Origin: Naegleria gruberi
Lineage: Eukaryota
Assembly (NCBI GenBank): GCA_000004985.1
Contig: GG738846.1
Reading direction: 5' to 3' (one strand)
Length of the DNA: 64,000 nt
This document shows, piece by piece, positions 1,554-53,133 of the stretch (positions are counted from its first letter, which is position 1; the number at the start of each line of letters is the position of its first letter). Below the pieces are notes generated by a model, which worked only from the letters and a program-made list of their open reading frames with translations, was not told the DNA's origin and ran no database searches. The position numbers and the translations under genes are program-made.

Positions 1554-2255
1554 ATGTGCCAACATCATCAAATGATACACTCAATGATGCATTCATCATC
1601 GTCGGGAATGGACCATATGATGCAAAATTCCAAACCAATGATGATGGATATGGGTGGTAACTCTACTCATCACATGTTAATGTATTTCTCACCACAATCA
1701 TTCGAACCATTTGTTAAATATATTCTTTTTCAAAATTGGAATGCGGATAATGAATGGAAATATGCCCTCTCAGTAATTGGAATCTTTTTAATTGCCTTCT
1801 TTAATCAATTTATTTTCTTTGCTCTCCATGTTCAAGTCGACCGAAAGAAGAGAAGAATTTTGCACTATGTAATTTCATATATTTGTAAACCACTCGGATT
1901 CTTTTTGGAAATGTCTATAGGGTATCTACTCATGTTAGTTTCAATGACCTATAATTTTGGACTCTTTATGGCAATTGTGATGGGCAACTTTGTTGGCTAT
2001 ATCATCTTTAACATGATTTGTACAAGCATGTTGGAAGGACATTATCATCAAGATCAAGTTGAAGAAGAGGAAAAGGAAGAGGAAGTTGAGCATGAATGTT
2101 GTAAGAAGAGAAAGGAATATGAAAAGATCAATGATACTGATGTGAAACGTTATGATGGATTTACATCAACTTCTATGAATATTCAACGTAATAATTTTGA
2201 TGATTTTGTAGAAGGTGCTAGTCCTTCTGTTAGACATCTTCACGATGAATATTAA
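1554..2255 (+). CDS. Ctr-family high-affinity copper transporter
   Basis: Met/His-rich N-terminus (MxxM clusters). TM2 carries MxxxM (MSIGYLLMLVSM). TM3 carries GxxxG (MGNFVGYIIF). Three predicted TM helices and an acidic C-tail. Confidence 0.75.
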   Translation: MCQHHQMIHSMMHSSSSGMDHMMQNSKPMMMDMGGNSTHHMLMYFSPQSFEPFVKYILFQNWNADNEWKYALSVIGIFLIAFFNQFIFFALHVQVDRKKRRILHYVISYICKPLGFFLEMSIGYLLMLVSMTYNFGLFMAIVMGNFVGYIIFNMICTSMLEGHYHQDQVEEEEKEEEVEHECCKKRKEYEKINDTDVKRYDGFTSTSMNIQRNNFDDFVEGASPSVRHLHDEY

Positions 2256-2295
2256 ATCATAATTTTAGTATTATTAAAAATCATTCTTATTTATT

Positions 2296-2697
2296 CTACC
2301 TATTAATTTCTATTTTGTGATGAATTGGATTTAATTTTAAATTATCAAATAAAATCTTGTAACGAATCAACCAAATCAGATTGGCCATTTGCTTGACAAT
2401 GAATGGACTCACTCTATCCTTCAAGGTGACAGTGAAAAAATTGGTCACATAGGATATAACTTGATAAGTCATTGAAGGTTTTGTGGAGAGAAGAACAGAG
2501 GAATGTTTGGCATTGGAGTGCATTGTCAAATCACAAAGTAACATGTTGGAAAAATACAATTCCGTATTGAAGAGTGCATAATGTGCTGGAAAAGTTTCTT
2601 TAATAGTATTGATAAAACTAAAGTCTTTCCGAACCTCTATTGTGTTCAAAGAAGAAGAAGGTACTATTGATGTATTATTATTATCCTTCACATTCAT
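2296..2697 (-). CDS. Small longin/sedlin-like protein, possibly a TRAPPC2L-type TRAPP subunit
   Basis: 133 aa. ...YQVISYVTNFFTVTLKDR... resembles the TRAPPC2L core (YKVYGYVTNSKVKFVMVVD). Weak family assignment. Confidence 0.35.
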   Translation of the reverse strand: MNVKDNNNTSIVPSSSLNTIEVRKDFSFINTIKETFPAHYALFNTELYFSNMLLCDLTMHSNAKHSSVLLSTKPSMTYQVISYVTNFFTVTLKDRVSPFIVKQMANLIWLIRYKILFDNLKLNPIHHKIEINR

Positions 2698-2799
2698 CTA
2701 TTTTTTTTAAGTCAATAAATGCAGCTCACTTTACAAAATCGTAGAATTCTAAACACTTTACATTAGTATCACAATTTGCATGTTATAAAAGTAATAATA

Positions 2800-4944
2800 T
2801 TATTCCAAGAAAGATGGCTTTGGCATTTGTTTGCTCTTTTTAAAATTGCCAATTAAATCAGAAAATCTAGAAAGAGAGGCCTTATCAGAACCTTTTGGTG
2901 GATTGGCCAGTAAATGAACTTCAATAAATTCTAGAATCTTGGCAAATTGAGCCTTATAGATTTGATGCATCTTGTAACCAGCAATTCTCAAGAATGAATC
3001 TAAAATTTCCAATGTAAACATTGTTGGACGTGAGTTCAAGAAGGCAGCTAGCCATTCCCAACCCTTCTCAATACCATACTTGTGACCTGGTGGATTATTT
3101 TGAATAATCATGGCATATATTGTAATAATATCATTCATTCTATTCATGTATTGAGATTGACTTTCCATTTCGCCATCCTCTTCCTTGAAGCCAAGTTTTT
3201 TCTTCAAATCAGAAGCATCAGTAACTTCATAAGGGAAGTATGGAATTGTAAAGATGCAATTGGTATGAATGTATCCAATCACAGCATCCAAAATTTCAGG
3301 AGAATCATTCATCAATTCAGATGTTACCTCAATGAATGGTAACACCTTCTTCAAATCACTAGTTTGACTTGCTGCTTGATCCACAATGGTTCTAGCATAA
3401 AAGTACAAACAAAAGTAGAATACATCCTTCTTGACCTTTTGCTTGGACATTATTTGATTGATTTCCTTTACAATTTCTCTCTGGTTAGTTTCTGTTATTC
3501 TGTTAATGGTCTTGTTAATGAGCTTTTTGGCAGCATCCATTTCTGGTTTTAGTTGGGGATCCATTCTCTTTTGGAACGATGCATACATTTCCTCCATTCT
3601 GTCAACATAAATTTTGGCAATAACGTAGGTTTTTGGTCTGGTAAAGTTTGGAACGGTAAGGGTTTTCTTAGGTCCAGAATATGGATTAACAATGGAAATG
3701 TCACTCTTTTCGGCTGGAGTTTCTTCTGCAGTACCGATACTATTTGGTTGTTGAGGTTTGATAGGAGAAACGTTAATTTCAGCTGGGGCAGTGGCAGCGA
3801 TGGCAGCTTGTCTTTTCTTTTCTTCTTCTTCGGCAGCTTTTCTCCTTTCTTCTTCGAGTTTTTCACGAGCAATTCTCTCTTGTTCTGCTTTTATCTTGGC
3901 GATACGTTCTTGCTCTGCCTTAATTTTAACAAGTCGTTCTTGTTCTACCTTTCTAATTTCTTCATTTTCACATTCGACAAGTTTGAGAATTTCTGCAAGT
4001 TCCTTTTCGATGTTTTGTCTAGAATTTTGCTTTCTAATATGGAGTTCTTCAAGTGCTTTCTTAGTGTCCTGTTGATGAATAATTGGTGTCTGGGTTGTTT
4101 GAATTTTGATTGATGTAGGTATAGATTTTTTGGAGTAAATTTCAGAGAATTCTTCAAGAGTCGATTCTACTGGAATAATTCTTCTCTCTGGTCTGGAAAT
4201 ATCAATAGGGATAGGTGGAATGTTGTCATCTTCGTCTTCCAAATCAAGGCCATACCGTCCTGAAGAGTAGATATTGGTAGGAGTGACTGCTACTGGTTCA
4301 TAAAATTTTACATTCATATTAATATTATCACAGTCTTTTAGTGATTCTGATAGATTGGCTACCAAGTCCACTTTTCTCTTCTGTTCTTCAGAAATTAAAT
4401 CTAATGGAGCGGATCCAAGTTTCCTCTTTTCCACATGATTGATAGATTTTACCAATATTGGTTTAATAACTCGGGATGGTGTGATGTGTTCTAAATCCTC
4501 ATCCGATTGCTGATTTTTCCTAATATTTTCTCCATCTTGATTCAATTTTTCTATTGTATTATTATTATTTTCTGAAGTATTGGTATTTATATTTACTCGC
4601 TTTTTTGGTCTATCCTTGTTGATTTCCTTTCGTGATAATAAATAATTATTTACTAGATTACTAATTTCCGTTCCTTTAGTAAGTAGTGAAGTTGTTCCAA
4701 CAACAATAAATATCATTAAAATGGAGACCCAACCATTTGTTGTTCCAAAAAGCAGAGAGGAAAATAAGTCATTCTCCGTGTTGTTTTTTTCTTCATCACC
4801 CGAGTTGGTTTTTAAAATTTCTTCTTGGTCATCCATGAGAACAGACGAACATTCAGCCATTTCCGACAATAAGAAACCTCCTAAACACGATGCTATAACA
4901 AATATTAAACCAATGACGAAGGATATTCTAACATGTTGTTTCAT
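2800..4944 (-). CDS. Coiled-coil protein with a GLE1-like C-terminal domain (putative mRNA-export factor / nucleoporin). The N-terminal hydrophobic segment may mean the true start lies downstream.
   Basis: Central KAEQERIAKIKAEQERIAREKLEEERRKAAEEEE coiled coil. C-terminal ...SQSQYMNRMNDIITIYAMIIQNNPPGHKYGIEKGWEWLAAFLNSRP... fits the conserved GLE1 region (Y..RM......YAAI.Q....HP.G...GW.WLAR.LN). Confidence 0.45.
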   Translation of the reverse strand: MKQHVRISFVIGLIFVIASCLGGFLLSEMAECSSVLMDDQEEILKTNSGDEEKNNTENDLFSSLLFGTTNGWVSILMIFIVVGTTSLLTKGTEISNLVNNYLLSRKEINKDRPKKRVNINTNTSENNNNTIEKLNQDGENIRKNQQSDEDLEHITPSRVIKPILVKSINHVEKRKLGSAPLDLISEEQKRKVDLVANLSESLKDCDNINMNVKFYEPVAVTPTNIYSSGRYGLDLEDEDDNIPPIPIDISRPERRIIPVESTLEEFSEIYSKKSIPTSIKIQTTQTPIIHQQDTKKALEELHIRKQNSRQNIEKELAEILKLVECENEEIRKVEQERLVKIKAEQERIAKIKAEQERIAREKLEEERRKAAEEEEKKRQAAIAATAPAEINVSPIKPQQPNSIGTAEETPAEKSDISIVNPYSGPKKTLTVPNFTRPKTYVIAKIYVDRMEEMYASFQKRMDPQLKPEMDAAKKLINKTINRITETNQREIVKEINQIMSKQKVKKDVFYFCLYFYARTIVDQAASQTSDLKKVLPFIEVTSELMNDSPEILDAVIGYIHTNCIFTIPYFPYEVTDASDLKKKLGFKEEDGEMESQSQYMNRMNDIITIYAMIIQNNPPGHKYGIEKGWEWLAAFLNSRPTMFTLEILDSFLRIAGYKMHQIYKAQFAKILEFIEVHLLANPPKGSDKASLSRFSDLIGNFKKSKQMPKPSFLE

Positions 4945-6633
4945 TTTTTCAAAAAATTTGTAAATAATAATTTAATTTCTTGCCCTTTAATTTTGTTGAA
5001 ATAATGTTAGATTGAGTAATTTTCATCATTTTGCTCCAATTGAACATGCACCATTAAAAATCAACAATATATATGAAGCCATTGTTAGGCTCATTTGGAC
5101 GGTGTTACTTTACACTTTTATAATAACGTAACACTCAAGATATCAAAAACCTCAATAACAAATGAACCACCCTCCTCACTCGATACTCACTCAACAATAC
5201 TGTTTGAAGCAGCAGAAGATGTTAATGAATGGGAGATATAGTGTAATTCTCATGGTAGTATTAGTCATTGTAATGTGTAACGTGTGTATGAAATCAATTT
5301 AATTGGTGCTTTACATAATCACCATCCCACCAATGTTATTGAGTGGAGTGGAGTTGTGTTTATCAATCAAAACATGACCATACATTTTAATACTGCATTG
5401 GCAATTAGGGATGATGCAACTATTGTGTTCTATGTGGATAAAGAGGAAAAACTAAATCTTGATTATTACATTCGAAAGAGGTGATCTAAAGATTGGATCA
5501 AGAGTTCAGTTTCTTAGTTTGAGTATGTTTAGAGGGACACAAAAAACTCCAGCTCAAACAGCTTTCAATACTGAAGATTGGGGATTCTTTTTCAGATACT
5601 ATTGATGAGAATCATGCAGTTAATACACTCAACCTTAACTCTGTAACAGTAATGGAAAGTAGAAGATTTCAAAGTGGATCCCCAACTTTGGCCATTTCCA
5701 ATCTCAATTCGCAGAGATTGTCATTTTGAAGGAGGGAATTCAATTTCTGCAACTGTTATTGACTAAACCTTTGAGTTGGTGTCCTGTCTCCCCTTGTATC
5801 CATTTCAAATACATCATTTGATAATTCAATGGCAACAAAGTCTGGTATTGCAGTACTCAACAATTTACAAAGGAAAGTTGTAATGGATATAACAGATTCT
5901 AGGTTTACTAATATATTTGGAGTTTTAATTGCGTCAGATAATATCGTTGAAAGGTGCTATGGCTCTCCAGATTTGACTTTCTCCCTTATTCACATGTCAC
6001 ACACAGTGTATCGGCTCTCTTTTGATAAACAAAGTATTCCTGACAATTCCAATATATATACAAAATTGAGTCTTTTTCATTTTGGAAGCTTGAACGAAAC
6101 TGTTTCATTCTCCAACATCAGACTTCTGTTATAGAGGAATAACAAAGTCTAACTATATGTTCAACACAACTTTTAACTATTGGGGATCAAATGTTGACAA
6201 GTCAAAGAATTTGGAACCTTGGACAACTTATTCGCTTATATCTGAAAAACTTTCTCCAACCACTGCATTTTTATTTGTCCCTTACTACTTGGAGTCCAAA
6301 TGTACATGATATATTGGAATATATATTCCACCCCTCAAGTCAACTCATCCTGTTCATTCTTCGGCAGAATTGGAAAATCAGTATGTGTGGATGGATTGTT
6401 GTTGTGTCTTTCTGTTGCAGTTTTTGTTGTGATTATTTCAGTTGTATTGGTTTTGCTTTCTATAATGTTGGAGAAGAAAGAGAAGTAGTTATTTGGCTAT
6501 TAACTAACCGTATGCACATAAATAATCAGTGATATCAATATTAGCAATTCATAACAATTTAATGGATTTAGCACTTGCTTGGTACTTTTTGGAGTAAAAA
6601 GTAGTGATTAATTACAATACATTTTTTTGTGTC

Positions 6634-35346: not shown

Positions 35347-36594
35347 ATGAAACCATTTCATCAATCAACAATATTTAAAATGCAACGAATATGTAGAAGC
35401 GCTTTGATTGTACCACTCTTGCTGTTGTTAGTATTATTTGTGATGGTGGTTCATGGTAGTGTACCACTCCTAATCGACACAGACATGGGCACCGATGATG
35501 TGTTTGCAATTCTTCATGTTTTAATGAAGAGTAGCAATAACAGCTCATTGTACTTGGCTGGTATGAGTATGGTCACAGGTATGCAATTAGACACAACCAA
35601 TTCTATCAAAATACTACAAGAATTACAGGCTTTTACCAATATATTCACAACAACAAATAATGGCAGGCCTCTACTTTTCGATACCCATGATCCAAAAGGT
35701 TTAATTCCAGCTGAAAGCCATTCCTTTTTGGAGGGTAAGTTTACGCGATGAAATCAAATAACAACAATACAAAATTTATGTAGGAGATTGGTATGTAAAG
35801 AGGTGGAAAGAAAGAGAGGAAAATTTGGATAAATTATTAGGATTGCCTCCGCTCTATGGAAATGAAACAAACTTGATGAAAGTTGTGAGCGGAAAGGATT
35901 TTACAAATGAAATGTTCAAACTTTTAAGTAATTACAGAAATGATCCAATCTCAATCTTGGCAATTGGTCCCCTCACTAATATAGCAAGATTAGTAATTGA
36001 GAGTGGTGGTCATAATTTACTGAAAGAAACAGTAAACCAAATTGTGGTTATGGGAGGGGGAGTAAATATAAAAGATACGAGTAATGAAATGAATGGTGCT
36101 GAATGGAATTTTTATTGCGACTCTATATCTGTAGAAATTGCATTGAATTACTTTAGTGGAAGAATTGTTTTGTTTGATTTACTAGTTGCTAATTTAGGTA
36201 TGTTCAAGTTTCAGTTAAATGTTTTAAAAATTAAATTGATTCAGACGTTGTAAATGATACAAATGCTCAAGATATTTTGAATTATGCATCTAAATTCAAT
36301 TACAAGACAACTTCAATTCCTCATTTCATGTCAGAATTATTGAAAATGTCAAGAGCATCTGCAACATTTGATCTTGTAGCATCATTTTACTTTACTAATC
36401 CTGAATTATTCACTTTTGAAAGCATTTGTGTTGAGATTTATACTCAATTTCCAAAACAAGGAATTATCAAACAAGTAGACTGTTCAATCTCATCACGAAT
36501 AATGGTCAAGAGAGCTGTTTCACTAAATAGAAACGCCTATTTGCAACATGTCAAGGATTTATTCACTCCCACAACATTCAAAAACAATCAATAA
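35347..36594 (+). CDS. Inosine-uridine preferring nucleoside hydrolase (IU-NH). Three exons: join(35347..35734, 35784..36207, 36255..36594); introns 49 and 47 nt.
   Basis: Signal-like N-terminus, then the IU-NH fingerprint LLIDTDMGTDDVFAI (DxDxGxDD). Exon 2 carries ILAIGPLTNIA. Introns GTAAGTTTACGCG...TATGTAG and GTATGTTCAAG...GATTCAG restore one 384-codon frame. Confidence 0.85.
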
Positions 36595-39048: not shown

Positions 39049-41501
39049 ATGAGAAAGGCATCACTCACCAAAGATACTACCATACTTCCAAAAGTTCATG
39101 TTTCAGCAAGTGGGAGAAAGGGGTCTGTCAGCGCAAAGGCAGCCCCACCTTCAGAATTTTCAGCATCAACATCCGATACAGTCAAACAGGCTGAAAAAGC
39201 TCTCCCTCTCCCGAATATTAGAAACAAATCCCCAGAATCTCTCTCCCTCTCCTATGAAAAGGAATTAAGAATTGAAACACCAAAAACTGAGAAGGCCATG
39301 TTTGAAACTGGTGCTTACGGAATGGTGGATCTTAGACTTCCAACCAAACAACAACCTTCTAGTCCTCTAACAAAAACAATGCGGTCTCCTTCAAAATACA
39401 AAAGTCTTTCATTCAGTTTGGATATGGAGGAAAGGGATAACTATGACAGTTCTCTATTTTCTCAGGAATTATCATCTTTTACCCTCTCTCATAATCAAAT
39501 TGTTGAATCGTGCTGGGATTACCTTCACCAAACTCCTTCCAGTGGAGCTCCAATGTCTAGCGAGCAAGCCAAGGCTCTCTTTAGTTCTTTAAGCAAAAAG
39601 AGAGAAGCAAAAGAGAGTGATGTTTACGATGACATTCAGAGTATTATCTCGTCAATGAAATGTGAGGAAGAAAGGCAAGAAATTGACATTGAAAATGCAA
39701 AGAAAAAGGATATTTCAAAGAGGAAACCAAAAAAAACATCAAGTGTAAGAAAACAAGTTGACGAAAGATTGAAAATATTGTATCATAATCCAGATGAGTT
39801 GGAAAGACTTGAAAAGGACATCTCTCATTATGAGAAACACGCTAAGGAAATTGAAATGGAGAGAAAGGCTCATTCCATTTATGTACAAAGAAATAAGAAA
39901 GTTCCAGAAAATTTCAAAGAGATTAGAACCCAACACTTGAGACAGGAAGTAAGTTTTTGGAATACAAATTCTAATCATTTAATATTTTGTAGTTCAAAAA
40001 GCGTGACGAAAAAATAGCTCAAGCAAAGGGAAGAAAGGAACAAATCACAAAAGAGTTCCAGGAACGAAAGGAAAATTTGGCTTTGAAAGATGAAAAAAGA
40101 AGACAACTTGCCGAATACTTTAGAATGGAAACTGAGAATAAGGCTAAGGATGCAGAAATGTATTCTAAATGGTCATTTTTGGTTTCTCTATTATCAAGAT
40201 TTTTAGTGTTTGCAAGAGAACTCTTGAGAAGAAGATATCTCAGAAAAGAAGAGGAAAAGTTTAAGCGAGTTAAGAGGATTGCCTACACCAAATTATTACC
40301 AGTCATTTGGGCCAAGAGAAGCGAAAAGTGGAGACAAGCTTGGGATGTTTTCAAAAAGTAAGTTCAAGCTAATTTATATCATGTTTACTATTGAAATAGA
40401 CATTGGATTTTCTATAGATTGTGGATTGGTGTCAAGAAGAAGAAGGAGTCAACTATGATTATTAAATCATTCTTAAGAGAAACAAATATGTCCTTTCAAA
40501 TTGTCAGACAGGTTCACTTGTTTTGGAGTAAAGTGATTAAGGTGCAAAGATTTTTGAGAAAGTGGCACCAAATCAAACAAGCTCAAATCATGGTTCAAGT
40601 TCTCCAGTATTCAATAGTCGAAGCTAAAATGTTAAGAGGTATACCATTAAAGGGTGAATCCATAGCTGAAAACCCAAAAAAGAAAAAAGTGTTTGGACGA
40701 AGATTTTCTGGTCAGTTAACTTCAGCATTACTGAGGGAAGAAAGTAAATCTAACTCAACAACACCAATACCTACCGATGACCAAACAGATGAAAAGGAGG
40801 ATAAATTCAGATTCAAACTTCTCAGACTTACATTGGATAAAAAGAAGGAAATTATTTACTCTGATCTAAAGCAGAGAAGAAACGATTATATTACTGCCCA
40901 AAAGATTTACAAGAACAAACTTCAACAATATGACAGAAGAGTCCAACAGTTAATGTACATTCTACAAGCCAAGAGTGCTCTCAGCGGTGGAGATATGACA
41001 ATAGATCCTTCATCAATTAGAGACGAAAACGGTGAAATAATTGAAAAACCAAAACCTCCATATCTCAAAGTAATTTTGAGTGAAATTGAAATGAAAAGAT
41101 TGGTCAATATTGGGCAAAAAGAGCTCAAAGAAAAAGAAGACAAAAAGAGGCAGAAAATTCTGGCCAATTATGTGGAATTCAGTGAAAAACAAAACGAGTT
41201 GGATAAAAAGAGAGAAAAATGGGAAAACAAAGTTGCAAGTGGATTTGAAGAGATGAAACAAGTTCTCGGGTCATTTCTTGGATTTGAGCAATTATTATTG
41301 TCTCCATTCGAATCTGAAAAGAAGCCAACTTCAGTTACCCCAGTTGATCCGAATGGTAGTCTCAATTCTCTTAAGGGTGGTATTTCTCGCTCCTATAACA
41401 GCAGTCCTATTGTTTCAAAACCTCCTCAACCACCAAAGAAGAAGCCAACCCTTTCAAAGATTGGCGTTCAAAGTTCCACCACTTTAACAAAACGATTTTA
41501 A
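39049..41501 (+). CDS. Hypothetical coiled-coil protein with IQ-like basic motifs. Three exons: join(39049..39948, 39993..40357, 40400..41501).
   Basis: Three consecutive ORFs joined by 44-nt (GTAAGTTTTTGG...TTTGTAG) and 42-nt (GTAAGTTCAAGC...GAAATAG) introns, giving one 789-codon frame (...HLRQE|FKKRDEKIAQ...; ...DVFKK|HWIFYRLWIGVKKKKE...). IQ-like VIKVQRFLRKWHQIKQ. Confidence 0.6.
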
Positions 41502-41608: not shown

Positions 41609-43932
41609 TTATTTTCCACCACGTTCTTTTGCCTTTTCTTGGGCAATCTTTTCCTTGATTGCATCCCAATTAGTTTCCATTTCTTGATATTGCAAGAATT
41701 CTGGCTTGTTTTCCTCTTGTCCTGTTTCCATCAAATATCTTCTTCTGTAGGCAATTACAGTATCAATATGTAATTTGAACCTCTTTGCCAAATCCAGAGC
41801 TCTGTCCCATTTATACAATTTTATATGCATCTTCACAGCTCTGTAAATTAATCTGGCTTGCAACAGAATGCTCTCTGCTTCATCAATATTTCTCATAAAT
41901 AAGGCAATGGCTGCATTCTTAGCTTCAGCTGAAGGAAGTCTCTTGATATTTGAAATGTATCTTAATTTGTCAACCTCTTCGAGTGCGGCTAACCCAACTT
42001 CAGCAGTATTGAGCTGGTTCAATTTAATTGCCATACCAACCAATGTAGCCCAAATGGCCTTATCTTTAACAAATCTACAAAGACGGATAGCTTGTTCCCA
42101 CTTTTTGTTTTCTATTAATTCATATAAAATTAATGGATATGGATGAACAGATTCTGTAATTACTGCTCCGTCAATTCTTCTAATATTGATCTTGGTATCG
42201 AAAAAGTCTCTAATGATAGATTGCTTTCCAATGTCATCCTTTTCAAACTTGACATAATCAAGCAAATCTCTGTCTACATATACAATCTTTGGATAATAGT
42301 AAACCAATAGCTGTCCTCCAGAAATAACAGACATCAAATCGGATTGGTCATTCCACATTGCAGAATCAACCATTGTTGCCAATTTGAAAACATCTCCTGT
42401 CTTTTTGGCCTGACTAATGTACAAATCTCTATTTCTATCAATAAATGCAATACATCTCTCACTCTTTGGGCCGAACTGGCTTACTTCGACTTGAGTTATT
42501 TCCATGTTATGCACAATCTTATCCAATTCTTTACCATTATTAACATCGAGCAACCTAATTGCTGTTGATTTGGCCTCTCCCTTATCAATGATAGCAATAA
42601 TATCATCGCTAAGACCAACAGCTTGATTATTCAAAAATTCTGTTCTTAAACCAGAGAATTTTGGATTACTCAATAATCTACCTTCATAGTTGTAAATTTG
42701 AATACCACTGAAATTGTCCATAGTAAGGAAGTTGTTTTTTGATTGCAAAATGAGATTGATATTATCCTTTACATCAAAAACATGAGGGGTTCCCAAGTTC
42801 TTGATATCATATACCCAAACTTGGGTCCATGTTGCAACAATTAATTTACCAAATCCTAGAGACCAGTTAATGACCTTATCACGGAACGAAATATCTTCAG
42901 ATCCTTCAGAGACGAGGTCAAAAACTTTAAGAGTAACATCATTTTCTAGCGAGACGAGTAAATTCTTCCATGCCAAGGATTTACCAACAATGTTTCCAAA
43001 ACAAACTCTTCCATTACCACCTCCTGCAGCAATTTGTGTTCCATCACTAGTCCAAGAAATATCTGTAATACTTCCTGTATTTGTTGTGTTTCTAGAGATT
43101 GTCCAACCTGATTTATCACAAATCTTGAGTGTATTGAAAGATCCAACAGCAAACAATTCACCATTAGGGGACCAGGATACACTTGTTATACTGTAATCAA
43201 ATGGAGTACTTGTATATAAAAGTCGTCCAAAATTGTCCCAAACCTTATATTTACCGTCTTCACCTCCACTAACAATCATGTTAGTGAGAGGATTCCAATC
43301 AACTTTGAGAATTTGAGAATCGTGAGCCTTCCATTGTATTTGTTTAGAGGCAACATGGATTGGCTTAATAACCAATTCTCTTCCATTTGTAAATAAAACT
43401 TCCTCACTAGATGGCCCCCAAGTTACTGAATAAACACTCTTTCCGACACTTGCTAGAGTGGATCGGAGCTGGCCACCTCTTGACCAAATTCTCAATACAC
43501 CATCTTCACCTGCGGTCACTAGGGCATTACCTTCATAACTCCAACGAATGGTAACTACGGCACCCTTGTGTGCGTTTGCAACTGTTTTTTCAATTCTTCC
43601 TGTTTTTGACACTAACCTAAATGATCCATCGGCACAACTTATTGCAAAAACATCTGATGTACTTGATGCTAATTTTTTGCTATATGATGGAAACCAGTGC
43701 ATATCGGTAACAATTACATCCAACTCACTCAATTTCGCTATTGGTTCTCCATTTAAATTCCATTTCCAAATAGATTTATCATCAGAAATACTAAATAATT
43801 GATTTTCTCCTCGTGACCATCCAACACAAGTGCAAACTTCCTTGTCTTTATAAATATTTATTGATTTAGAGGGTACAAGCTCAAAACACACTTACGTTGT
43901 TGTGCTGTAGACTCTTGGAGTTGTAGTTTCAT
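41609..43932 (-). CDS. IFT80: Intraflagellar transport protein 80 (WD-repeat). Two exons: complement(join(41609..~43845, ~43896..43932)); intron ~51 nt.
   Basis: Near-colinear with human IFT80 along its length (...CVGW..., LVTAGEDG.LRIWS, SVTWGPSSEEVLFTNGRELVIKP, WKAHD..ILKVDWN, SAMWNDQSDL..., LCRFVKDKAIWATLVGMAI...). The 37-nt 5' exon MKLQLQESTAQQ(H) plus intron restores MKLQLQESTAQQHKEVCTCVGW (cf. [22 protein letters not shown]). Confidence 0.9.
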
Positions 43933-44043: not shown

Positions 44044-46679
44044 TTAAAGATAATCTGTGCCCATCGATGATTCTGTATTGTCATTATCATTAACTTCGGT
44101 CCTATTCATATTTTCTCTCATGTTATTGATAGATATTTCACAAAGACGATAGAGTTGGAAGGTTGCTTGGTCAATTGTGCCTGTTTGAGTTTGCTCATTG
44201 ATGATGGTATTTAATAAATCTCTTGCCTCCTCAAATTTACTATCTTCAAATAATTGGTGAGCTCCGTTATATTCATCCCATTTGTGTTTTTTCGTTTTCT
44301 CATGCAATTCATACATCCACTTTATAAAAACAATGAATAACATTTGAGATTAATAATACTTACCTCTTGGTCCTGTTGAATTATCTTCTCCTCTCCAACT
44401 TCATACAAGTTGTAAATTTCCTCTTCCCTTCCTTCCGTATTTAGGCAAGTGTTTGAAAAACTTGTTTGGCTATTGAGTAGAAAAACATTTCCAATAAATC
44501 TGTGATAGTACTTTTCACTAGTGGCCTTTTTGAAATATTCTGGAACAGTCATCTTGATATCTAATTCAACACAAATATCATTCATCTTTCGAATGGTTTC
44601 CATTACATGATCAGTATTAAAAGGAGTGAAAATAGTTGGTGTGGCAAGACCACATAATAACTTTTGTTGAAACGTCACCATTCTAAACTTGATTGGATGT
44701 TTGATTTTGATCTTTTCTAATTGATCTAAAAAGAAATAATTGTTAGAGATGATCTTATCAATTGGGAAAGTATTAGTGGCAAAATTATAAAAGAGACCAA
44801 TAACATTAGTAGAGAGAAATCCAGCCTTACACCCCTTCTGACTACACATTGTTGTTATCTTTTCACAACATTCCAATAAAAAGTGAATAGCTTCTCCCAT
44901 ATTTGAGGTGGCAACTTGATCAAGTCCTTCAAGTGAGACGCCAACACATATAACTTCTCTTTCTTCAATCACTTGTTGGTGTCTCTTCTTGTTGGCAAAT
45001 TTAAAGCTATTGGAGAGGAAAGATCCAATTCCTTCCTTATTTTGGGTTTTGGCGAATTGTTGGGAGGATTTCAAATCAATTGATTTGTTAATGGACAAAT
45101 CGGATTCATACTTGACAATGGGATTTTTCTGAATAAATGATTGATTATTACTCTGTGGACTCACCAACCTTCCAATCATTTCTCTTAAAAACTTGAATTC
45201 GTGGAGATTTCTCACGAGAGGTGTTTTTAAATTCTTCTTTCTTGGAACTCCATTAAAACTTTCCTTGATACCATACGTTTCGTCAACCATTTGAAAAATC
45301 TCATTAAGCGGCCTCAAAAAGAGCCAAATAAATGTAATTGAAAGAATAGCCAATACAATAAATAATATCAAGTTGGCTGCTAAGGTTATTAGCATTGGTG
45401 AAACGAGAGAACTTGTCAAACTGCTTGTTGGTATGGAGGTCACAAGGATTAAATCCAGTCTTTCACCTAAGCACATTCTCTTCATAAACAGGGTTTGGAT
45501 ACTATCAGCATCCTCTACTATTATCTGTTGGGAGCATTCTGTTGGCTTTGATTTCTTAATTTTCTCTATTTGAGTACTGGAAAAGTCAAATTTAGCACCA
45601 AGAACAGAGGTTGAGTTTGTATCCATGAGCATTATATTTCCATTAACTGAATAGTACATTGTTGGTACAAGAGCCTTTGCACACAGTCTATTCAAACTTA
45701 GATCCATTGCAAAGTAGTAAAAGTTAGACTTGGAATCTATCCACTTTTTTAACAGTCTAACAGTATTTCTTTCAGATACAAGTCCAACTATTTGAATTGA
45801 TTGAAAATTATCCCTCACTAGAGTATTCTCAATTCTTAACTCTGTATTAGAAAATGTTTTCGAAGAACCCATCTCACATTCACTCTTACTTGTCCAATCT
45901 TGACAAAAAGTTAGGGAATTGAGGGATTGGGATGAATTCATCATGTATAATTCTCCACCATAATAAAAAACTCCAACCTTATTTCCAAAAGCATCTCCAA
46001 TATAAATAGAACTAACGAGATCTAACTCCTTTTCAACTATTGCCTTGAATACTCCAAAAAAATTAAACTCTCCATTTTTCAAATCACTAATAGAATCATT
46101 AATCAAAATCTTCAATTGGCTAGTGACAGACTCCGATAATATAAGCATGTTATTAAGAGTGTTTTCAATATTTTTCTCTGAATTCAAAGAATCGAGTATT
46201 ACTATCTTGTTATTTGTATTTTTCAAAGTCAATCCAAAGGAGACTATCCACGAACAAGTCAACAAAATAAATAATAGAAATAATATAAAGCAAAACACAA
46301 CACTCAGCCAACATTTGACTGTTTGTTTCGATTGAAGCCATATAATACATTCTCCCTCAGAATTTTCCTTATTTTCTTCACCCATTGATGTATTCTCTTC
46401 TTCAGTTTCTTCATTGTTCGATTCTGGTGTTAGTACTCTTCGCGATATTTCAATAGACTGTTGTATTTCGGGTTGATGTTTTGCAGAGTTGACCATTTCA
46501 TTAGCAATATTCTTGTGATCGTTGGGGGAGGCATTTAAATTCGCAAAGACAGGTTCAGGTATTTCTCTATTCGAAAGAGAGAGCGAGAGTCGTCTAGATT
46601 TCGTTGAGGAAATACTGTGAGAGCTATTAGATGAGGTAAAGGGCATTACCAGAGTTGATGATATTGTACTGGGCTGCAT
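44044..46679 (-). CDS. Two-TM sensor protein with a C-terminal degenerate cyclase-homology-like domain (receptor-type nucleotidyl-cyclase-like, probably catalytically inactive). Two exons: complement(join(44044..~44339, ~44386..46679)).
   Basis: TM1 CWLSVVFCFILFLLFILLTCSWIVSFGL, a ~300-aa extracytoplasmic region, TM2 MLITLAANLILFIVLAILSITFIWLFL, then ...EVICVGVSLEGLDQVATSNMGEAIHFL...FRMVTFQQKLLCGLATP...FTPFNTDHVMETIRKM... This resembles a class III cyclase domain but lacks the metal-binding Asp residues. A 46-nt intron (GTAAGTATTATTAATC...TATAAAG) joins it to the downstream 99-aa ORF. Confidence 0.5.
45872..46358. repeat. Copy A of a 487-bp duplicated segment (5' coding part of the sensor gene). 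About 99% identical to 51783..52269.
   Basis: The identical 96-aa antisense ORF appears at 46045..46335 and 51954..52244. Direct sequence comparison shows a single mismatch region (ataAtt vs ataCtt). Confidence 0.8.
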
Positions 46680-46737
46680 ATTACAAGCAAGTTGGAATGA
46701 AATGGTGATAGAACGACCTTTTTTTGATCTATTTCTG

Positions 46738-46966
46738 AGGTGTACTGATATCTCTTTTCAATAAACTTCAAGAATTTAAAATAGGTAGACTATACTTTTT
46801 GTATTGAATAATTGTAATTTACAATTTCTTATTTTCAAAAACTGACTCTGAAATTATTGGTACAAAATCTTCGGCCTTATATAATTTGTGTTCGTTAATA
46901 TATTTCTCAACCTTATCGTGAACATAGTATTTTACAGAGTTGTTTCTTCGAACCAATTGTCTAATT
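46738..46966. repeat. 229-bp fragment duplicating the NMNAT 3' end (last ~49 codons plus 80 nt of 3' flank). Copy of 52271..52499.
   Basis: gtgtactgatatctcttttcaataaacttcaag...gaaccaattgtctaa is shared. Similarity ends abruptly at 46966 (A: ttcatgttgg; B: ctttggtaga). Confidence 0.8.
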
Positions 46967-47614
46967 CATGTTGGTGTGGGTGTAATTAAGTTGGGGGGCT
47001 ACGTGCAGTTAAGAACAACTAGATCAGATGCTCTATTCAGTCTGTGTAAAGTTACTTTTGGTTGCAACGAAGGAATGGAATTTTCTAATTATTTTGAGCG
47101 TATCTGTCTAGAATCTACAGTGAGACCTTTTCCAAGATTAAATAAAACAACTTTGGATAATTTAATAACAATTATTCCTTCGTCCCAATTAATATCAATC
47201 TCAAAAAGAGGAAATTCCAATGGATTTCTATGTATCATCAAGTTGTGTCAATCCTCCCAACATTATTTATTGAGATAATCAATGGGTTCCAGATCTTGTA
47301 AAAAGCACTAATATGACAACACTTTCCCCAAAAAATGAATGACTGAATTAACAATCATAGACAAAACCCCAAATTAGAAATTTGTTACAGTAACTTTTAT
47401 TTGAATTCAGTAGATTCACAAGAAGAGATCTCAGAAGGAGACTTGATAGAAAAATTATTGAAAATGTACATTATGTATTACCAATCTCAAACCTTTGGAA
47501 AAATTTAGTGATACTATAAGATGCATTACATCCTTCTTGATTATTCACAAAATGTGATGTTTTCGTTTTTTTTTCCTAAAATTTTACAACGAAAGTGCGC
47601 ACCAATCAAATTAC

Positions 47615-47650
47615 TGGCGTAACATTAATTGCGTCAAAAAGTGTTTTGAC
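47615..47650. promoter_or_regulatory. Perfect 15-bp-stem palindrome ttaattgcgtcaaaa(agtg)ttttgacgcaattaa, 15 bp upstream of the F-box/LRR gene start
   Basis: Read directly from sequence. Function unknown (hairpin or dimeric TF site). Confidence 0.3.
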
Positions 47651-47662
47651 GCAATTAAAAAA

Positions 47663-49318
47663 ATGTTTGGACGCAAACACATTAGAGAAAATAGGCAGAA
47701 CAGCACAACTATACCTTTTGGTGGCGCACTTCCAACAATAATTTCTTTTCTTGATCAAAAATCATTTCTGTCTTTTGTTGGTGTTTGTAGTTACATCCGA
47801 TATTTTGTAGAATCAATGAAAATAACTAAAGAGTTTGATTCTAACAAAAGGAATGTACATGCCGTTTATTTAGCAACGAGACAATTAAATTTTGAAAAAG
47901 TTTCCTTCCACAAACTGTTCACCAAATTATCATTCACAAAAGTCTCTGTTTCCAAAAATCAAATGAACCTATTATTAACATCCAACAAAGTAGATAGTCT
48001 CACATTTAGATCTTCACAAGTATCACTCCCTAATTCACTCCCTAACATCATATCCACAATTTCCAAACTTGTTTTAGAAAATATGGTAATTGATGTTGGT
48101 AAAATAGGGAACGTATTCAATAACATTAAGCATATGTCTTTTAAAAAAGTTGGTTTTAATTGGAACTTGATGGAGCAATTTTTAAAATTGAAGTTTAATT
48201 GTTTAGAAAGTTTATATTTTAGAGATGATGAATTGGATACTGATTGCATCAATATTTTTTTTATGAGCAGGAACTTTAAAACTCTAAAATCTATTACGTT
48301 CAAGAGTTATTGTTTAAACTATATTGCCAAAATCAACAAAGATAACTTCCCACATCTAGAAAAATTTACCTTGAAATCACGTTACAAAAATGATGAAAAT
48401 ATTATAAATATATTAGAAAGTCAGTTAGATCTGAAAGAATTATATACCTATACTACACTATCAGAAGAGATAATCTCAAGCTTGTTGAAAAATCCTAATT
48501 TAAATATTATTAATATGATAGCACCAAGCATTTTTGAACAGGCGCAGATAGACGAGAAGCTTTTTTTTTTGTTAATGAGTAGACTAAAATGCTTAACTGA
48601 AATTTCTTTAATAATACCATCTAATCTTGTGCCCATTTTAACTGCAAACACTAATGCACAAAAGATAGCAATTAATACATCATCAATTCCAGCTATTCAA
48701 ACGCCATTATTCAACTTTCAATCAATCCTTCGGATATTAGAATTGCATAATACTTCATTACTAGATATTGATTGTGTTGCCATAAGCTCCTCCAATATTA
48801 AGGAACTTAAGATGGTTAGCTGTAATTTCATTGGTGAAGGATATACTAATATCGCAAACATGACTCAACTAAAGGTTCTTTCACTTAACCGCTTGCTCTT
48901 CCCAACGACAATAATTGATCCATTCCACATTTTTTTGGGTGGTTCATTAATTTCACTGGAGAAGTTTGAATACACTTCATTGCACTTCAGAAACGACTTT
49001 TGTTTACCAAACGACCTAGTTAACCTTCCCAAATTGACATTTTTTGAAACCTGTTCTCCTACTTATATTGATTTGCAGAAACTTTTACAAAATTCTAAAG
49101 TAGCTACATTAGATCTTTCTTTTGAGTTTTTTTTGAATTTCGAGTTCTTGGACAACCTCTTAACTAAAAATCATTCCATTACCCAGCTAATACTACCACC
49201 AAAGGCCGAAGAAAGGTTCAAAGATCAAAGAAAATCATACCTCAAACAAATATCTAGAATTCAAAAACTGTTCAATATTCAAGTTTCATTTAGCAAACAT
49301 ATGCTTGTGTTTGAATAA
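47663..49318 (+). CDS. Hypothetical F-box-like / leucine-rich-repeat protein
   Basis: N-terminal LPTIISFLDQKSFLSFVGVCSYIRYF is F-box-like, followed by irregular LRR-like L..L..L.L units. Lies in the 4.8-kb block between the duplicated segments. Confidence 0.4.
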   Translation: MFGRKHIRENRQNSTTIPFGGALPTIISFLDQKSFLSFVGVCSYIRYFVESMKITKEFDSNKRNVHAVYLATRQLNFEKVSFHKLFTKLSFTKVSVSKNQMNLLLTSNKVDSLTFRSSQVSLPNSLPNIISTISKLVLENMVIDVGKIGNVFNNIKHMSFKKVGFNWNLMEQFLKLKFNCLESLYFRDDELDTDCINIFFMSRNFKTLKSITFKSYCLNYIAKINKDNFPHLEKFTLKSRYKNDENIINILESQLDLKELYTYTTLSEEIISSLLKNPNLNIINMIAPSIFEQAQIDEKLFFLLMSRLKCLTEISLIIPSNLVPILTANTNAQKIAINTSSIPAIQTPLFNFQSILRILELHNTSLLDIDCVAISSSNIKELKMVSCNFIGEGYTNIANMTQLKVLSLNRLLFPTTIIDPFHIFLGGSLISLEKFEYTSLHFRNDFCLPNDLVNLPKLTFFETCSPTYIDLQKLLQNSKVATLDLSFEFFLNFEFLDNLLTKNHSITQLILPPKAEERFKDQRKSYLKQISRIQKLFNIQVSFSKHMLVFE

Positions 49319-49346
49319 AATGTTAAAATAACATGCTTTGTCTTAT

Positions 49347-49913
49347 TTATTGATGTTTTTGAATTTTACCAGATACTGACTTTCTAAATAACTTCCTAAC
49401 GAATATCTTAAGAATAATAGTTAACAAAATAACAATAAAGAGCAAAGGATATCCAAAAACGAAAGGGAAAAGAGCATAATATTGGTGGAAGTTAATAGTT
49501 AAATCCTTGGCATGTAAAAAACTGGTCAAAATAATCACCGAGCCAAAATGAAGCAAAACACCAACAAAAACAAGGATTCTAAAAACCAACAAAAAACCCT
49601 CATATCTTTCTTTCTTAATCAATTTTGTTGCATTATAATTCATAAAATCTACGTTAAGTATTACGTCAATGAAAGTAATAAAGGCAGAATAAGTTGTAAT
49701 TTTTACCGCATTACCAAAAATCTGTGAAGTTATTTCAGAGACCACCCTTAAAGAGATGTACGAATCATTGATATCATTACTGGTATTTTTGATTGCAAGT
49801 TGCTTGTTAGTAGGTACGGTTATGAAATAAAATGCTAAACTCATGAACAGACCAAATGTAAGGTTAAACCAAACAGTGATTTGGGCTTCTCTATCCTTAG
49901 CCATAGTGTCCAA
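49347..49913 (-). CDS. Hypothetical small multi-pass membrane protein
   Basis: 188 aa with 4 predicted TM helices. The reading frame stays open a further ~75 codons upstream, until a stop inside the left TIR of the MITE-like element. Confidence 0.35.
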   Translation of the reverse strand: MDTMAKDREAQITVWFNLTFGLFMSLAFYFITVPTNKQLAIKNTSNDINDSYISLRVVSEITSQIFGNAVKITTYSAFITFIDVILNVDFMNYNATKLIKKERYEGFLLVFRILVFVGVLLHFGSVIILTSFLHAKDLTINFHQYYALFPFVFGYPLLFIVILLTIILKIFVRKLFRKSVSGKIQKHQ

Positions 49914-50076
49914 ATTTTTTTTGATATCTTTGTTTTTTGACTCATATTTCGCCTTTAACTCTCTGAGTATTTTCAGAGTTGGTGGTGGTCCCCATAAATA
50001 TTTAAAAAATTGAAGACTTGCACCAAAACTTTTATAGTCTTTGCCATCACTCTCGCCATCACGCTTGTAGCCTGAA

Positions 50077-50570
50077 GGATAATTACTGTAAAACCTGGTG
50101 CGTAAGACTCATTACTGCGTAAGACTTTCTATTTAAAAAAAATGACAAAATCATAATCGTGTGCCAACGACATCAACGAAAAAACAAACCAACAATCGAA
50201 TAAACAAATTATTCCAATTCTTATAGAGGGTTGTATTTATTATTTATCTAATTTCCTACCACCAACAAAAACACCAGTTTGCGCAATTAAAAAATCAACT
50301 TGAAACAATTCCGCAAAGTGAGCTTTCGAACCTGCAAAACCGAATTTTTGAATAATCTATTTGATGCTGATATTGGTGATTCACATCCCAATATATATTC
50401 TATATTATAATTCTATTCTACTGATGGTTTTGCAATAACAGATTGTGATCTTGCAGAAACAACAACAATTAAAATTTGCGAGCGTGTGGGTTCTCTCTTT
50501 TTTTTTTGTTGCCGAGAAAAGGTTTTCCCGAGCTAAAGTCTTACGCACCAGGTTTTACAGTAATTCCTTG
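50077..50570. mobile_element. MITE-like non-autonomous DNA element, ~490 bp, with 29-bp perfect (34-bp with one indel) terminal inverted repeats and no coding capacity
   Basis: Left end aagga(t)AATTACTGTAAAACCTGGTGCGTAAGACT (50082-50110). Right end AGTCTTACGCACCAGGTTTTACAGTAATTcctt (50537-50570) is its exact reverse complement. Subterminal direct repeat gcgtaagact x2. AT-rich interior. No clear target-site duplication. Confidence 0.5.
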
Positions 50571-51272
50571 TTCCAAAAAAAGTTTTTGCGGAACTTCTTT
50601 AGAGGAAAAATAATAGTCATGCCTTAGCTCTGAGGGTTGTCTTTCATATTTTTTCAAAAACTTGCTGTATTCCTCAAGGTCTTCTTTTAATTCTACCAAA
50701 TTTTTGATGATACTTAGGAATAGTTTTTGCCTTTTGGGTGGTAGTTCGTTTGTGGGAATATTTGTATAGCCCTGGATTTTGGTAGGAAAATCATAAAAAA
50801 AGGAAAACGAGTCTACAACACCACCAAAAGAAGCACAACAGTTTTCTAAGTGCTCTCCGAGAAGCAAATAATCTTCTAATAACTTGGCAGCTTTTTGTTC
50901 ATTTTTTCTGCGATTGAGATCTTAATCCCTTAAATTCTATGTTTATTAGGAGTAGAATGAGGGTTCTATCCTTAATTGAGTGAAAATTCTTAAAAGATGA
51001 ATTGTGAATTATGAAAAGTAAGTGAAATTTATTAAGCGACATTGATCCATCCTCGGACATTTGGCTTGTGTAATTTGATTGTAATGGTAGAATACACGAG
51101 GATTGATGACAAAAGCAAGTTGAGTGCAAAAAGTTCTTGCTTCAATACCAAAAATGTTGTGGTATTTGATACACCAAGGATAATCTACCCATAGATCAGA
51201 GATAAACAGTTCTTGATGTAAACAAAGAAATTTTTCCATCACCATTTTCAATCCTCTATCCTTCAAATACAC
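50541..51272 (-). pseudogene. Two adjacent minus-strand ORFs (108 and 87 aa) that cannot be joined by a canonical intron. Possible degenerate gene of unknown family.
   Basis: ...DYPWCIKYHNIFGIEARTF... and ...LEDYLLLGEHLENCCASFGGVV.... No in-frame ATG for the downstream part and no GT-AG junction found. Confidence 0.2.
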
Positions 51273-51739
51273 TTATTGGAATCCCCTCCAAAAACCAAAT
51301 ATTAAAACGAAGAGCTGATAGATACAAAACCACTGTGACTGGTTTAATAAAAAAAATGAACCATCTGTTGACCAGTCAAAAGATAAAGGGATATTTGGCT
51401 TTGTACAATATTTTAATGGCTGTTGTTTTGTGTTTAGGCTTCCGATGCTACCGTTTACTACTAAATGCTTACTAAGGTATGTTTTACACTATCGCTTAAT
51501 CCTAGAAATGAAGTGACTTTTCGGAACCCTTGTCTTAATCGGGATGGAGTTAGTAACAGATCCAGCCATCATTGTTGATAATGTTACAAATTATGGTTGC
51601 AAGAATGGTACTAAACCTTCATCTGAAGAGTACACCAGTGTAGCCGTGCAAACAATGTTACTTGATTATTTGAGATGCGTTTTTTGTCTTTTTACTCTTC
51701 CTGCCACTTTTATTTGGTATTCTTATTATTTTCAGGATA

Positions 51740-52303
51740 CTAATACCTCAGACAATTACCATCCAGCAACAGGATCTGCATTTCACATTCACTCTTACTT
51801 GTCCAATCTTGACAAAAAGTTAGGGAATTGAGGGATTGGGATGAATTCATCATGTATACTTCTCCACCATAATAAAAAACTCCAACCTTATTTCCAAAAG
51901 CATCTCCAATATAAATAGAACTAACGAGATCTAACTCCTTTTCAACTATTGCCTTGAATACTCCAAAAAAATTAAACTCTCCATTTTTCAAATCACTAAT
52001 AGAATCATTAATCAAAATCTTCAATTGGCTAGTGACAGACTCCGATAATATAAGCATGTTATTAAGAGTGTTTTCAATATTTTTCTCTGAATTCAAAGAA
52101 TCGAGTATTACTATCTTGTTATTTGTATTTTTCAAAGTCAATCCAAAGGAGACTATCCACGAACAAGTCAACAAAATAAATAATAGAAATAATATAAAGC
52201 AAAACACAACACTCAGCCAACATTTGACTGTTTGTTTCGATTGAAGCCATATAATACATTCTCCCTCAGAGGTGTACTGATATCTCTTTTCAATAAACTT
52301 CAA
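51740..52303 (-). pseudogene. Truncated duplicate of the sensor/cyclase-like gene (residues ~100-270, single L to V change). No start region or cyclase-like domain.
   Basis: Protein EGECIIWLQSKQTVKCWLSVVFCFILFLLFILLTCSWIVSFGL...GGEVYMMNSSQSLNSLTFCQDWTSKSECEM is identical to the 44322..46679 product apart from ELY to EVY. It is fused at 52270 directly to the NMNAT 3' flank. Confidence 0.7.
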
Positions 52304-52499
52304 GAATTTAAAATAGGTAGACTATACTTTTTGTATTGAATAATTGTAATTTACAATTTCTTATTTTCAAAAACTGACTCTGAAATTATTGGTACAAAAT
52401 CTTCGGCCTTATATAATTTGTGTTCGTTAATATATTTCTCAACCTTATCGTGAACATAGTATTTTACAGAGTTGTTTCTTCGAACCAATTGTCTAACTT
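51783..52499. repeat. Copy B of the duplicated block. Equals copy A 45872..46358 joined directly to 46738..46966, i.e. lacking A's intervening 379 bp.
   Basis: Junction in B is ...ctccctcagaG|GTGTACTGA.... In A the same two pieces are separated by the sensor gene's 5' coding end and upstream region. Micro-homology (gagg) at the junction. Confidence 0.8.
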
Positions 52500-53133
52500 T
52501 GGTAGAACTGACATCATTGATAATCCACTCAGGAATAATATGGATATTCTTCTTATTTCTATACAATGTATCATGTTCAAATACAATAGTATTTACAGAA
52601 ATACCATCTCTCTCAATACAACATGCTCCAAACTTGGAGAGAATATATTCAACTTGTTCTGGAATCCAAACACCTGGTTTAACAAAAGATTGTAACAAAT
52701 CAGCTCCACACAATAACATTATTCTCAACTCTGTAGTTGAAGTGTAAGATTTTTCAATTTCATCTTGAAAATGTTTTAGTACAAGCAAAGTACGTGAATA
52801 TTCACTCTGATTGACTTCCCATTCATCAATATTAATCCAATCGGAATCAGAAACTGCCAATCTACACATATCAACACGATATTTAGCACTGATAAGAGTT
52901 GGTTTTCTCTTTTCATAATCCTGATGAACAGGAGAAATAAATCCTCCAACAACATGATATCCCTCTTCATTCTGTAAAAAATCTCTAGCTGTTTCAAACA
53001 TTCGGAGATGTGAATTGGTGATCGGATTAAAACTTCCACAAGCAATTAGTACAACATTGTTAAGTGTTGATGAAAATGTGAGTTTTCCAAATGGAAAAGT
53101 ATACTCATTATTGGCTTGTTGTTGAGAAGACAT
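52351..53133 (-). CDS. NMNAT: Nicotinamide/nicotinate mononucleotide adenylyltransferase (NMNAT)
   Basis: VVLIACGSFNPITNSHLRMFE (the (H/T)xGH-type nucleotidyltransferase motif region), ...ISSTKVRQL... (the ISSTxxR motif), 260 aa. Confidence 0.85.
   Translation of the reverse strand: MSSQQQANNEYTFPFGKLTFSSTLNNVVLIACGSFNPITNSHLRMFETARDFLQNEEGYHVVGGFISPVHQDYEKRKPTLISAKYRVDMCRLAVSDSDWINIDEWEVNQSEYSRTLLVLKHFQDEIEKSYTSTTELRIMLLCGADLLQSFVKPGVWIPEQVEYILSKFGACCIERDGISVNTIVFEHDTLYRNKKNIHIIPEWIINDVSSTKVRQLVRRNNSVKYYVHDKVEKYINEHKLYKAEDFVPIISESVFENKKL

Follow-up and report, generated by a model that had tools for sequence, protein, structure and literature searches.

Here, we describe a 475-bp feature in the nuclear genome of Naegleria gruberi that we moderately favor to be a non-autonomous cut-and-paste DNA transposon (MITE), probably Tc1/mariner-like. 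It would occupy positions 50086 to 50560 of the window, by which we mean the whole stretch of 64,000 nucleotides analyzed. N. gruberi serves as a reference genome for the reconstruction of early eukaryotes; the catalogue of its transposable elements is poor.

Inverted repeat and element boundaries

The most conspicuous property of the region is a perfect 29-nt inverted repeat, AATTACTGTAAAACCTGGTGCGTAAGACT (plus strand), whose left arm occupies 50081 to 50109 and is exactly reverse-complemented in the right arm at 50537 to 50565, with 427 nt in between. An earlier note on this DNA, made from the letters, had recognized the exact repeat and placed the right arm correctly but gave the left arm as 50082 to 50110. 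These two arms are the sole matches to the arm sequence in the 64-kb window when up to three mismatches are permitted. Arm matches were found in 0 of 100 dinucleotide shuffles, and no other perfect inverted repeat exceeding 20 nt occurs anywhere in the window with arms at most 1.5 kb apart. Sensitive self-comparison extended the arms imperfectly to about 62 nt each (50081 to 50142 versus 50503 to 50565, 78%), giving subterminal extensions at 50110 to 50142 on the left and 50503 to 50536 on the right (plus strand). The left extension includes a copy of the arm with an internal deletion (ATTACTG/CGTAAGACT); these 17 nt, 50110 to 50126, resemble a second arm minus 12 internal nucleotides. The subterminal direct repeat GCGTAAGACT, also reported in the earlier note, is present at 50100 and again at 50117 (second copy 50117 to 50126). 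If a 2-nt bulge is tolerated, the arms can be followed outward as far as AAGGA/TCCTT. RNA folding of the region returned a 34-bp stem with a 2-nt bulge (z = -6.2 versus shuffles), and the duplex of the arms alone amounts to -48 kcal/mol.

The interior had been described as AT-rich and non-coding. Its GC content of 0.32 is typical of the window (0.334), which speaks against the first attribute, and the second was borne out: it contains no start-codon open reading frame (ORF) of more than 60 amino acids, its longest stop-free stretch comprises 49 codons, and the element gave no match in Rfam and no signal in Pfam. No known RNA family, no tRNA, and no tandem repeat of note were found in it.

For delimitation of the element, flanking direct repeats of 2 to 10 nt were tested at all plausible element ends. 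The only possible duplications are AT, AATT, and TA, all derived from the palindromic AATTA...TAATT, and because the target site is palindromic, sequence alone does not separate the three. TA is the sole option with which element plus duplication is divisible by 3 (475 + 2 = 477 = 3 x 159), and we prefer it because only TA restores the flanking ORF. The best-fitting anatomy thus appears to be TA[475-bp element]TA in a palindromic AATTAATT target, with the proposed target-site duplication at 50084 to 50085 (left copy, within palindromic AAT-TA-ATT) and 50561 to 50562 (right copy). The element proper would begin with 5'-CTG and finish with CAG-3', its ends being 24-nt perfect terminal inverted repeats, CTGTAAAACCTGGTGCGTAAGACT. 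Of the 29-nt repeat, these 24 nt are enclosed by the TA duplication; the rest of the perfect match is due to the target being a palindrome. GGATAATTAATTCC is the empty-site sequence expected under the TA model; the reconstructed site, GGATAAT-TA-ATTCC, translates uninterrupted as ...KLFLEQGI NYPSGYKRDG.... Duplications of 8 bp (hAT-type) or 3 bp (PIF-/CACTA-type), TTAA, and others were rejected, as no corresponding direct repeat of 2 to 10 nt occurs at the plausible boundaries. The MITE-like anatomy proposed in the earlier note therefore holds in that the element is small and non-coding, has perfect terminal inverted repeats, and is compatible with a TA duplication.

An interrupted open reading frame

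The element is located between two minus-strand open frames that are in phase with each other. The upstream frame, unannotated and without an ATG, comprises 126 codons at 50545 to 50921 (or 50544 to 50921), runs into the right arm, and ends there at an in-frame TAA (50543 to 50541). The downstream frame extends over 49347 to 50085 and begins inside the left arm, where it is open to 50108 (253 codons). Removal of the element together with one TA fuses the 126- and 253-codon frames without a stop. The earlier note had seen the open frame of the 49347..49913 gene reach the left repeat, which is the case up to 50108, and from this it suggested insertion into a former 5' exon or UTR; with in-phase frames abutting both element ends, this wording is too weak.

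In the reference annotation, only the last 185 codons of the fused ORF are represented, by NAEGRDRAFT_62004 (49347 to 49904, minus strand), a 185-amino-acid "predicted protein" identified by exact look-up. Upstream of its ATG, 60 open, coding-like codons lead to the element edge (68 to 50108), and the element lies about 177 nt upstream of this annotated ATG, in the middle of an ORF of about 365 codons. We infer that insertion split this ORF (...FLEQGI|NYPSGYKRDG...) and that only the downstream 185 codons became annotated because the in-frame TAA carried by the element would truncate the upstream part. The upstream open frame has no match in the N. gruberi protein set, nor does any tested ORF in the interval 49905 to 51739 correspond to a protein annotated in N. 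gruberi; the reference annotation thus appears to put the element into an intergenic stretch.

Several observations bear on whether the split frame is coding. The stop frequency computed from the base composition of the window is about 0.074 per codon, and non-coding DNA would be very unlikely to contain the stop-free runs of 126 and 68 codons that flank the element. By codon usage, the three ORF segments score 0.20 (upstream frame), 0.24, and 0.28, within the 0.13 to 0.69 of real genes in the window and higher than most antisense shadow ORFs. A full HMMER search against 1.84 billion representative proteins retrieved only the ORF's own fragments and the ORF of the second allele described below. 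An indexed protein search with the joined ORF also gave no match, but the same search missed the exact 185-amino-acid EFC50190 in its own collection, which index-free HMMER found at E = 1e-109; negatives of word-indexed searches are thus weak for such a sequence. Judging from these database comparisons, the interrupted ORF is an orphan, and it may be decaying.

No in-frame ATG was found upstream of the element. The nearest ATG, at 50900 to 50902 on the minus strand, has a typical AAAAAATG start context, but in both alleles it is shifted by 1 nt relative to the frame (MNKKLPSY*). Lengthening of the A5 run by one A would give MNKKAAKLLEDY.... Since the second allele is identical there, the frameshift is real or the ATG is not the start, rather than the result of a sequencing error. 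A donor-like motif for an upstream exon was absent from the minus strand between 50850 and 51790. The coding argument consequently rests on ORF length and codon usage, because the ORF has no in-frame upstream ATG, no homolog, and no annotation.

A deletion derivative at the same site

A second version of the locus was obtained from the independent short-read ENA metagenome assembly ERZ929261 (run ERR1078381, project PRJEB11402), in which N. gruberi DNA is evidently present. Exact look-ups of a 585-amino-acid ORF, the PDI ORF, and a 95-amino-acid ORF beside the element led to ENA contigs, the last of them to the contig covering the element site, L003. Exact-protein look-ups in the contig index with NMNAT, the IFT80 model, the LRR ORF, and a 188-amino-acid ORF yielded nothing, and our literature search found no paper citing the project. 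The three contigs L001, L002, and L003 are 99.5 to 99.8% identical to the window, offering a ready source for allelic comparison in N. gruberi.

L003 matches the window at 99.5 to 99.8% identity on both flanks of the element and reads GGATAATTACTGTCTTACGCACAGGTTTTACAGTAATTCCTTG at the element site. It lacks 450 nt, 50090 to 50539 (equivalently 50088 to 50537), with GT microhomology at the junction, and in addition one C of 50548 to 50549 in the right arm. Of the two breakpoints, one falls 9 nt inside an arm and the second at the top of the opposite arm. Between the same two TAs, a remnant of 24 nt is left, composed of 2 to 4 nt of one end and 20 to 22 nt of the other. It breaks the frame, such that the upstream ORF continues for 20 codons out of frame and then meets a stop. 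Deletion from the full element to the remnant is the parsimonious direction of change, because the reverse would need an insertion bringing an inverted copy of adjacent sequence. As read from this alignment, the element is polymorphic within N. gruberi, with a full copy and a deletion derivative at the same site. It provides a concrete marker for the comparison of N. gruberi strains, and a polymorphic, apparently recent MITE in an ORF would show active cut-and-paste transposition in the Naegleria lineage.

The remnant was probably derived from the full element by excision, followed by interrupted template-dependent gap repair and annealing at the GT microhomology. Excision footprints and internally deleted derivatives of this sort are known to result from interrupted gap repair in Tc1, P-element, and Ac/Ds systems. 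As in these, the L003 remnant combines a handful of nucleotides from one element end with some 20 nt from the other, the two meeting at a 2-nt microhomology while the proposed flanking duplications are intact; the canonical Tc1/mariner footprint, by contrast, retains only 2 to 3 nt per end. A spontaneous, transposase-independent microhomology deletion is an alternative explanation for the remnant. Bypass of the hairpin by a polymerase or an assembler was rejected as the origin of the deletion, since the breakpoints are not where such a skip would jump.

The deletion allele also bears on whether the inverted repeat might be a functional structured element of NAEGRDRAFT_62004, such as a promoter, a 5'-UTR hairpin, or a small-RNA precursor. 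The strong fold and the location just upstream of the annotated start would suit this idea. Yet L003 has lost 450 nt, including one whole arm, so that a conserved structural or regulatory hairpin, the outcome that the earlier note had set against a transposon, is ruled out. The stretch between arm and ATG is moreover an open, coding-like frame and not an A-rich leader as in other genes here, and an Rfam match is absent. A functional role of the repeat for this gene is largely refuted by the deletion allele and seems very improbable to us.

Chimeric clones can produce inverted repeats, and the reference sequence might in principle contain an assembly or cloning artefact. Against this, the independent short-read assembly shows, at the corresponding position, the right arm short of one C together with the initial 9 nt of the left arm, a pattern that is only sensible as a derivative of the full element; we therefore consider an artefact hardly credible.

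Transposon class and origin of the element

Duplication of TA in an AT-rich palindromic target is a signature of Tc1/mariner-type elements and their MITEs, and the TA-targeting Tc1/mariner type is, on the anatomy outlined above, most likely the class of the element. A transposase supplied in trans would have inserted it at the TA of the target, duplicating this dinucleotide. Tc1/mariner-derived MITEs (Stowaway-like) are likewise a few hundred base pairs long and non-coding, with terminal inverted repeats of 20 to 30 nt and, as proposed here, a duplicated TA in an AT-rich palindromic target, and they occur as element-bearing and deleted or footprint alleles. In contrast to these, the TA duplication described here was deduced from ORF restoration and not from several copies, and the class was assigned without a related transposase, a family, or similarity of the ends to described elements. 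Typical Tc1 ends read CAGT...ACTG; here, the ends are CTG...CAG.

Neither a second copy of the element in the 64-kb window nor a transposase domain in the 29 scanned window ORFs of at least 150 amino acids was found. A 20-mer of the terminal repeat had no matches in viral, JGI-metagenome, and prokaryote-genome collections; this is uninformative with regard to copy number, because a control 24-mer from the flank likewise had no matches in the metagenomes. The six-frame pseudo-protein of the element, used to reveal ORFs predicted on further copies, had no match in the protein database; this negative is weak, as the same search missed an exact self-match. Repeats reportedly make up about 5% of the N. 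gruberi genome, DNA transposons included (PMC6125883; PMC12344493), which favors the MITE reading. According to a recent survey, classified transposable elements account for only 0.28% (bioRxiv 10.64898/2026.06.24.734286), which counts against it. If the element is single-copy and unspliced, it would be a run-of-the-mill case of gene disruption, affecting an orphan ORF that is probably decaying.

The element occurs within a 4.8-kb block of orphan ORFs (46965 to 51778) between duplicated segments, as stated in the earlier note. A segment of 1.1 kb is present twice in direct orientation with 99.6% identity (45870 to 46964 and 51779 to 52496). It holds the 5' part of a 785-amino-acid gene, the upstream region of that gene, and the last 146 bp of NMNAT. 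The second copy lacks 372 bp (46362 to 46733), with GA microhomology at the junction, yielding the truncated 105-amino-acid "gene" NAEGRDRAFT_62005 (51740 to 52057, minus strand); the NMNAT gene NAEGRDRAFT_29800 follows at 52351 to 53133 (minus strand), both assigned by exact look-up. The duplicated segment looks like the product of an insertion with a long target duplication or of a partial tandem duplication.

This setting raises the question of whether the feature arose in a single local rearrangement, for example by inverted duplication or templated insertion during break repair, with L003 representing a later deletion; the event might even be the one that created the 4.8-kb block and the 1.1-kb duplication. 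Such an origin would fit the single copy in the 64-kb window, a region already rearranged by a segmental duplication and a 372-bp microhomology deletion, and the additional, internally deleted self-copy of the left arm, which indicates local shuffling of sequence. However, inverted duplications made by repair are not normally clean-ended with a TA duplication that exactly restores an ORF. Nor does the window contain a sequence similar to the interior that could have been the template, and perfect arms enclose an otherwise unique element. We regard a one-off rearrangement as unlikely and favor a transposon.

In L003, the surrounding block is arranged differently. Contig positions 1666 to 5034 correspond to window positions 45870 to 49239, and the contig jumps from window position 52270 to 46362 and continues to 49239, equivalent to a circular permutation of block plus repeat. 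Within the repeat, L003 has the SNPs of copy 2 at the start and a SNP of copy 1 later. The permutation is likely an assembler path through the 1.1-kb repeat; alternatively, the 5.9-kb unit might exist in that isolate in tandem or as a circle.

Splice-like signals in the element ends

The earlier note overlooked that the arms contain splice-type motifs on the gene strand. On the minus strand, the element starts CTGTAAAACCTGGTGC|GTAAGACT and finishes ...AGTCTTACGCACCAGGTTTTACAG|TA. A 5' splice-site-like GTAAGA (GC|GTAAGA) occupies 50539 to 50544, 16 nt inside the element, and the terminal CAG (50086 to 50088), as GGTTTTACAG|TA, would be the corresponding 3' splice site. TCTTAC, which is the reverse complement of GTAAGA, resembles a branch site at 50102 to 50107; its A, at 50103, precedes the predicted 3' splice site by 17 nt, and the motif recurs at 50119 to 50124. 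The predicted intron, from 50544 to 50086, comprises 459 nt (3 x 153) with GT...AG termini and joins both frames in phase. Splicing would leave 16 nt of the element and the 2-nt duplication, altogether 18 nt or 6 codons (TVKPGA), and because the element ends are identical, it would be equal in either orientation. In such a design, one and the same 24-nt end would act as a 5' splice site (GTAAGA) when read one way and as a branch site (TCTTAC) plus 3' CAG when read the other way. Insertion at any TA, in any orientation and phase, would thus generate a spliceable intron leaving exactly 18 nt (6 codons).

It is possible, though doubtful, that the MITE is in addition introner-like, that is, removed from pre-mRNA as a spliceosomal intron by means of its end signals and frame-neutral in any phase. 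Besides the in-phase joining of two open frames by a GT...AG candidate, two points would be in line with this: with TA as the duplication, the final dinucleotide of the element is exactly the predicted 3' splice site, and a branch-like A precedes the AG by 17 nt. Well-documented examples exist of introns that derive from transposons and have terminal repeats and target duplications at their junctions (PMC9860276, PMC11282704). GTAAG forms the first five positions in 7 of the 9 introns identified in the window, the other two starting with GTATG, but the candidate differs from local introns in several respects: it has 459 nt and GTAAGA, with A at +6, in contrast to 38 to 50 nt and GTAAGT or GTATGT, with T at +6, in all nine. 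Furthermore, pairing of the arms into a 29-bp stem of -48 kcal/mol would hide the 5' splice site, the branch site, and the 3' site within double-stranded RNA. The rescued ORF has no upstream start codon, the nearest ATG (50902) being out of frame by 1 nt, and the L003 allele is frame-broken, so that the ORF is not obviously under selection. Phase compatibility by itself has a prior of 1 in 3. A reverse transcriptase-mediated precise intron loss in L003 was rejected, as the deletion (50090 to 50539) differs from the predicted intron (50086 to 50544). A genome-wide introner screen scored N. gruberi NEG-M with none (IE = 0, Table S4, PMC9860276). That screen used annotated introns, and an unannotated low-copy element would escape it.

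The element is reminiscent of introners, as known from Micromonas, Aureococcus, dinoflagellates, and fungi (PMC9860276, PMC11282704), which are also MITE-like, reside in coding regions, and have terminal repeats. They would also share with it a short duplication of the target where exon and intron meet, splice signals that the element itself provides, and, as predicted here, splicing that keeps the frame. Introners, in contrast, form families of many near-identical, demonstrably spliced introns, whereas we describe one copy with splicing predicted from sequence. In Micromonas, moreover, one splice site is co-opted from the duplication (PMC11282704), whereas here the element would supply both, with an 18-nt scar left behind. 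More loosely, the element recalls the MITE-like nonconventional introns of euglenids, a lineage that is related to Naegleria and likewise belongs to Discoba. In these, inverted-repeat ends pair and bring the intron ends together, CAG/CTG motifs occur near the ends, junction repeats resemble duplications, and a MITE origin is suspected (PMC11282704). They differ in their non-canonical junctions with CAG at the 5' and CTG at the 3' end, whereas the present element has CTG...CAG and canonical GT...AG available. To our knowledge, nothing like the euglenid nonconventional introns is known in Heterolobosea.

That the element would be the first introner-type transposon seen in Heterolobosea/Discoba appears quite unlikely on the present comparison. 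If it is spliced via its end signals, it would constitute an independent discoban example of transposon-generated introns with a very simple, orientation-independent design, and N. gruberi would become a tractable, culturable system for studying the conversion of transposons to introns.

Local genes and introns

The window encodes intron-poor eukaryotic housekeeping genes, among them those for IFT80, topoisomerase II, GLE1, Nup107, a DEAD-box helicase, PPR proteins, PDI, and NMNAT. The IFT80 ORF is 100% identical to NAEGRDRAFT_77945 of N. gruberi. Given this identity and eukaryotic genes such as those for topoisomerase II and Nup107, the possibility that the window is prokaryotic or viral was rejected. 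Nine introns were inferred in the window: five on the minus strand (13489 to 13440, 22198 to 22153, 26755 to 26713, 27061 to 27024, and 43895 to 43846, the last in IFT80) and four on the plus strand (35735 to 35783, 36198 to 36244, 39949 to 39992, and 40358 to 40399). The IFT80 intron was identified by homology, that of the adenylate cyclase gene by continuity of the Pfam domain, and the rest by frame joining. The intron at 13489 to 13440 splits an adenylate/guanylate cyclase domain between two ORFs. IFT80 has a first exon of 37 nt (ATG at 43932, MKLQLQESTAQQ...), followed by the 50-nt minus-strand intron at 43895 to 43846 (GTAAGT...AAAG), and both are backed by the N termini of the Willaertia and Acrasis proteins. 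The NAEGRDRAFT_77945 model (697 amino acids) starts at an internal Met and omits this first exon and intron (43932 to 43846, minus strand).
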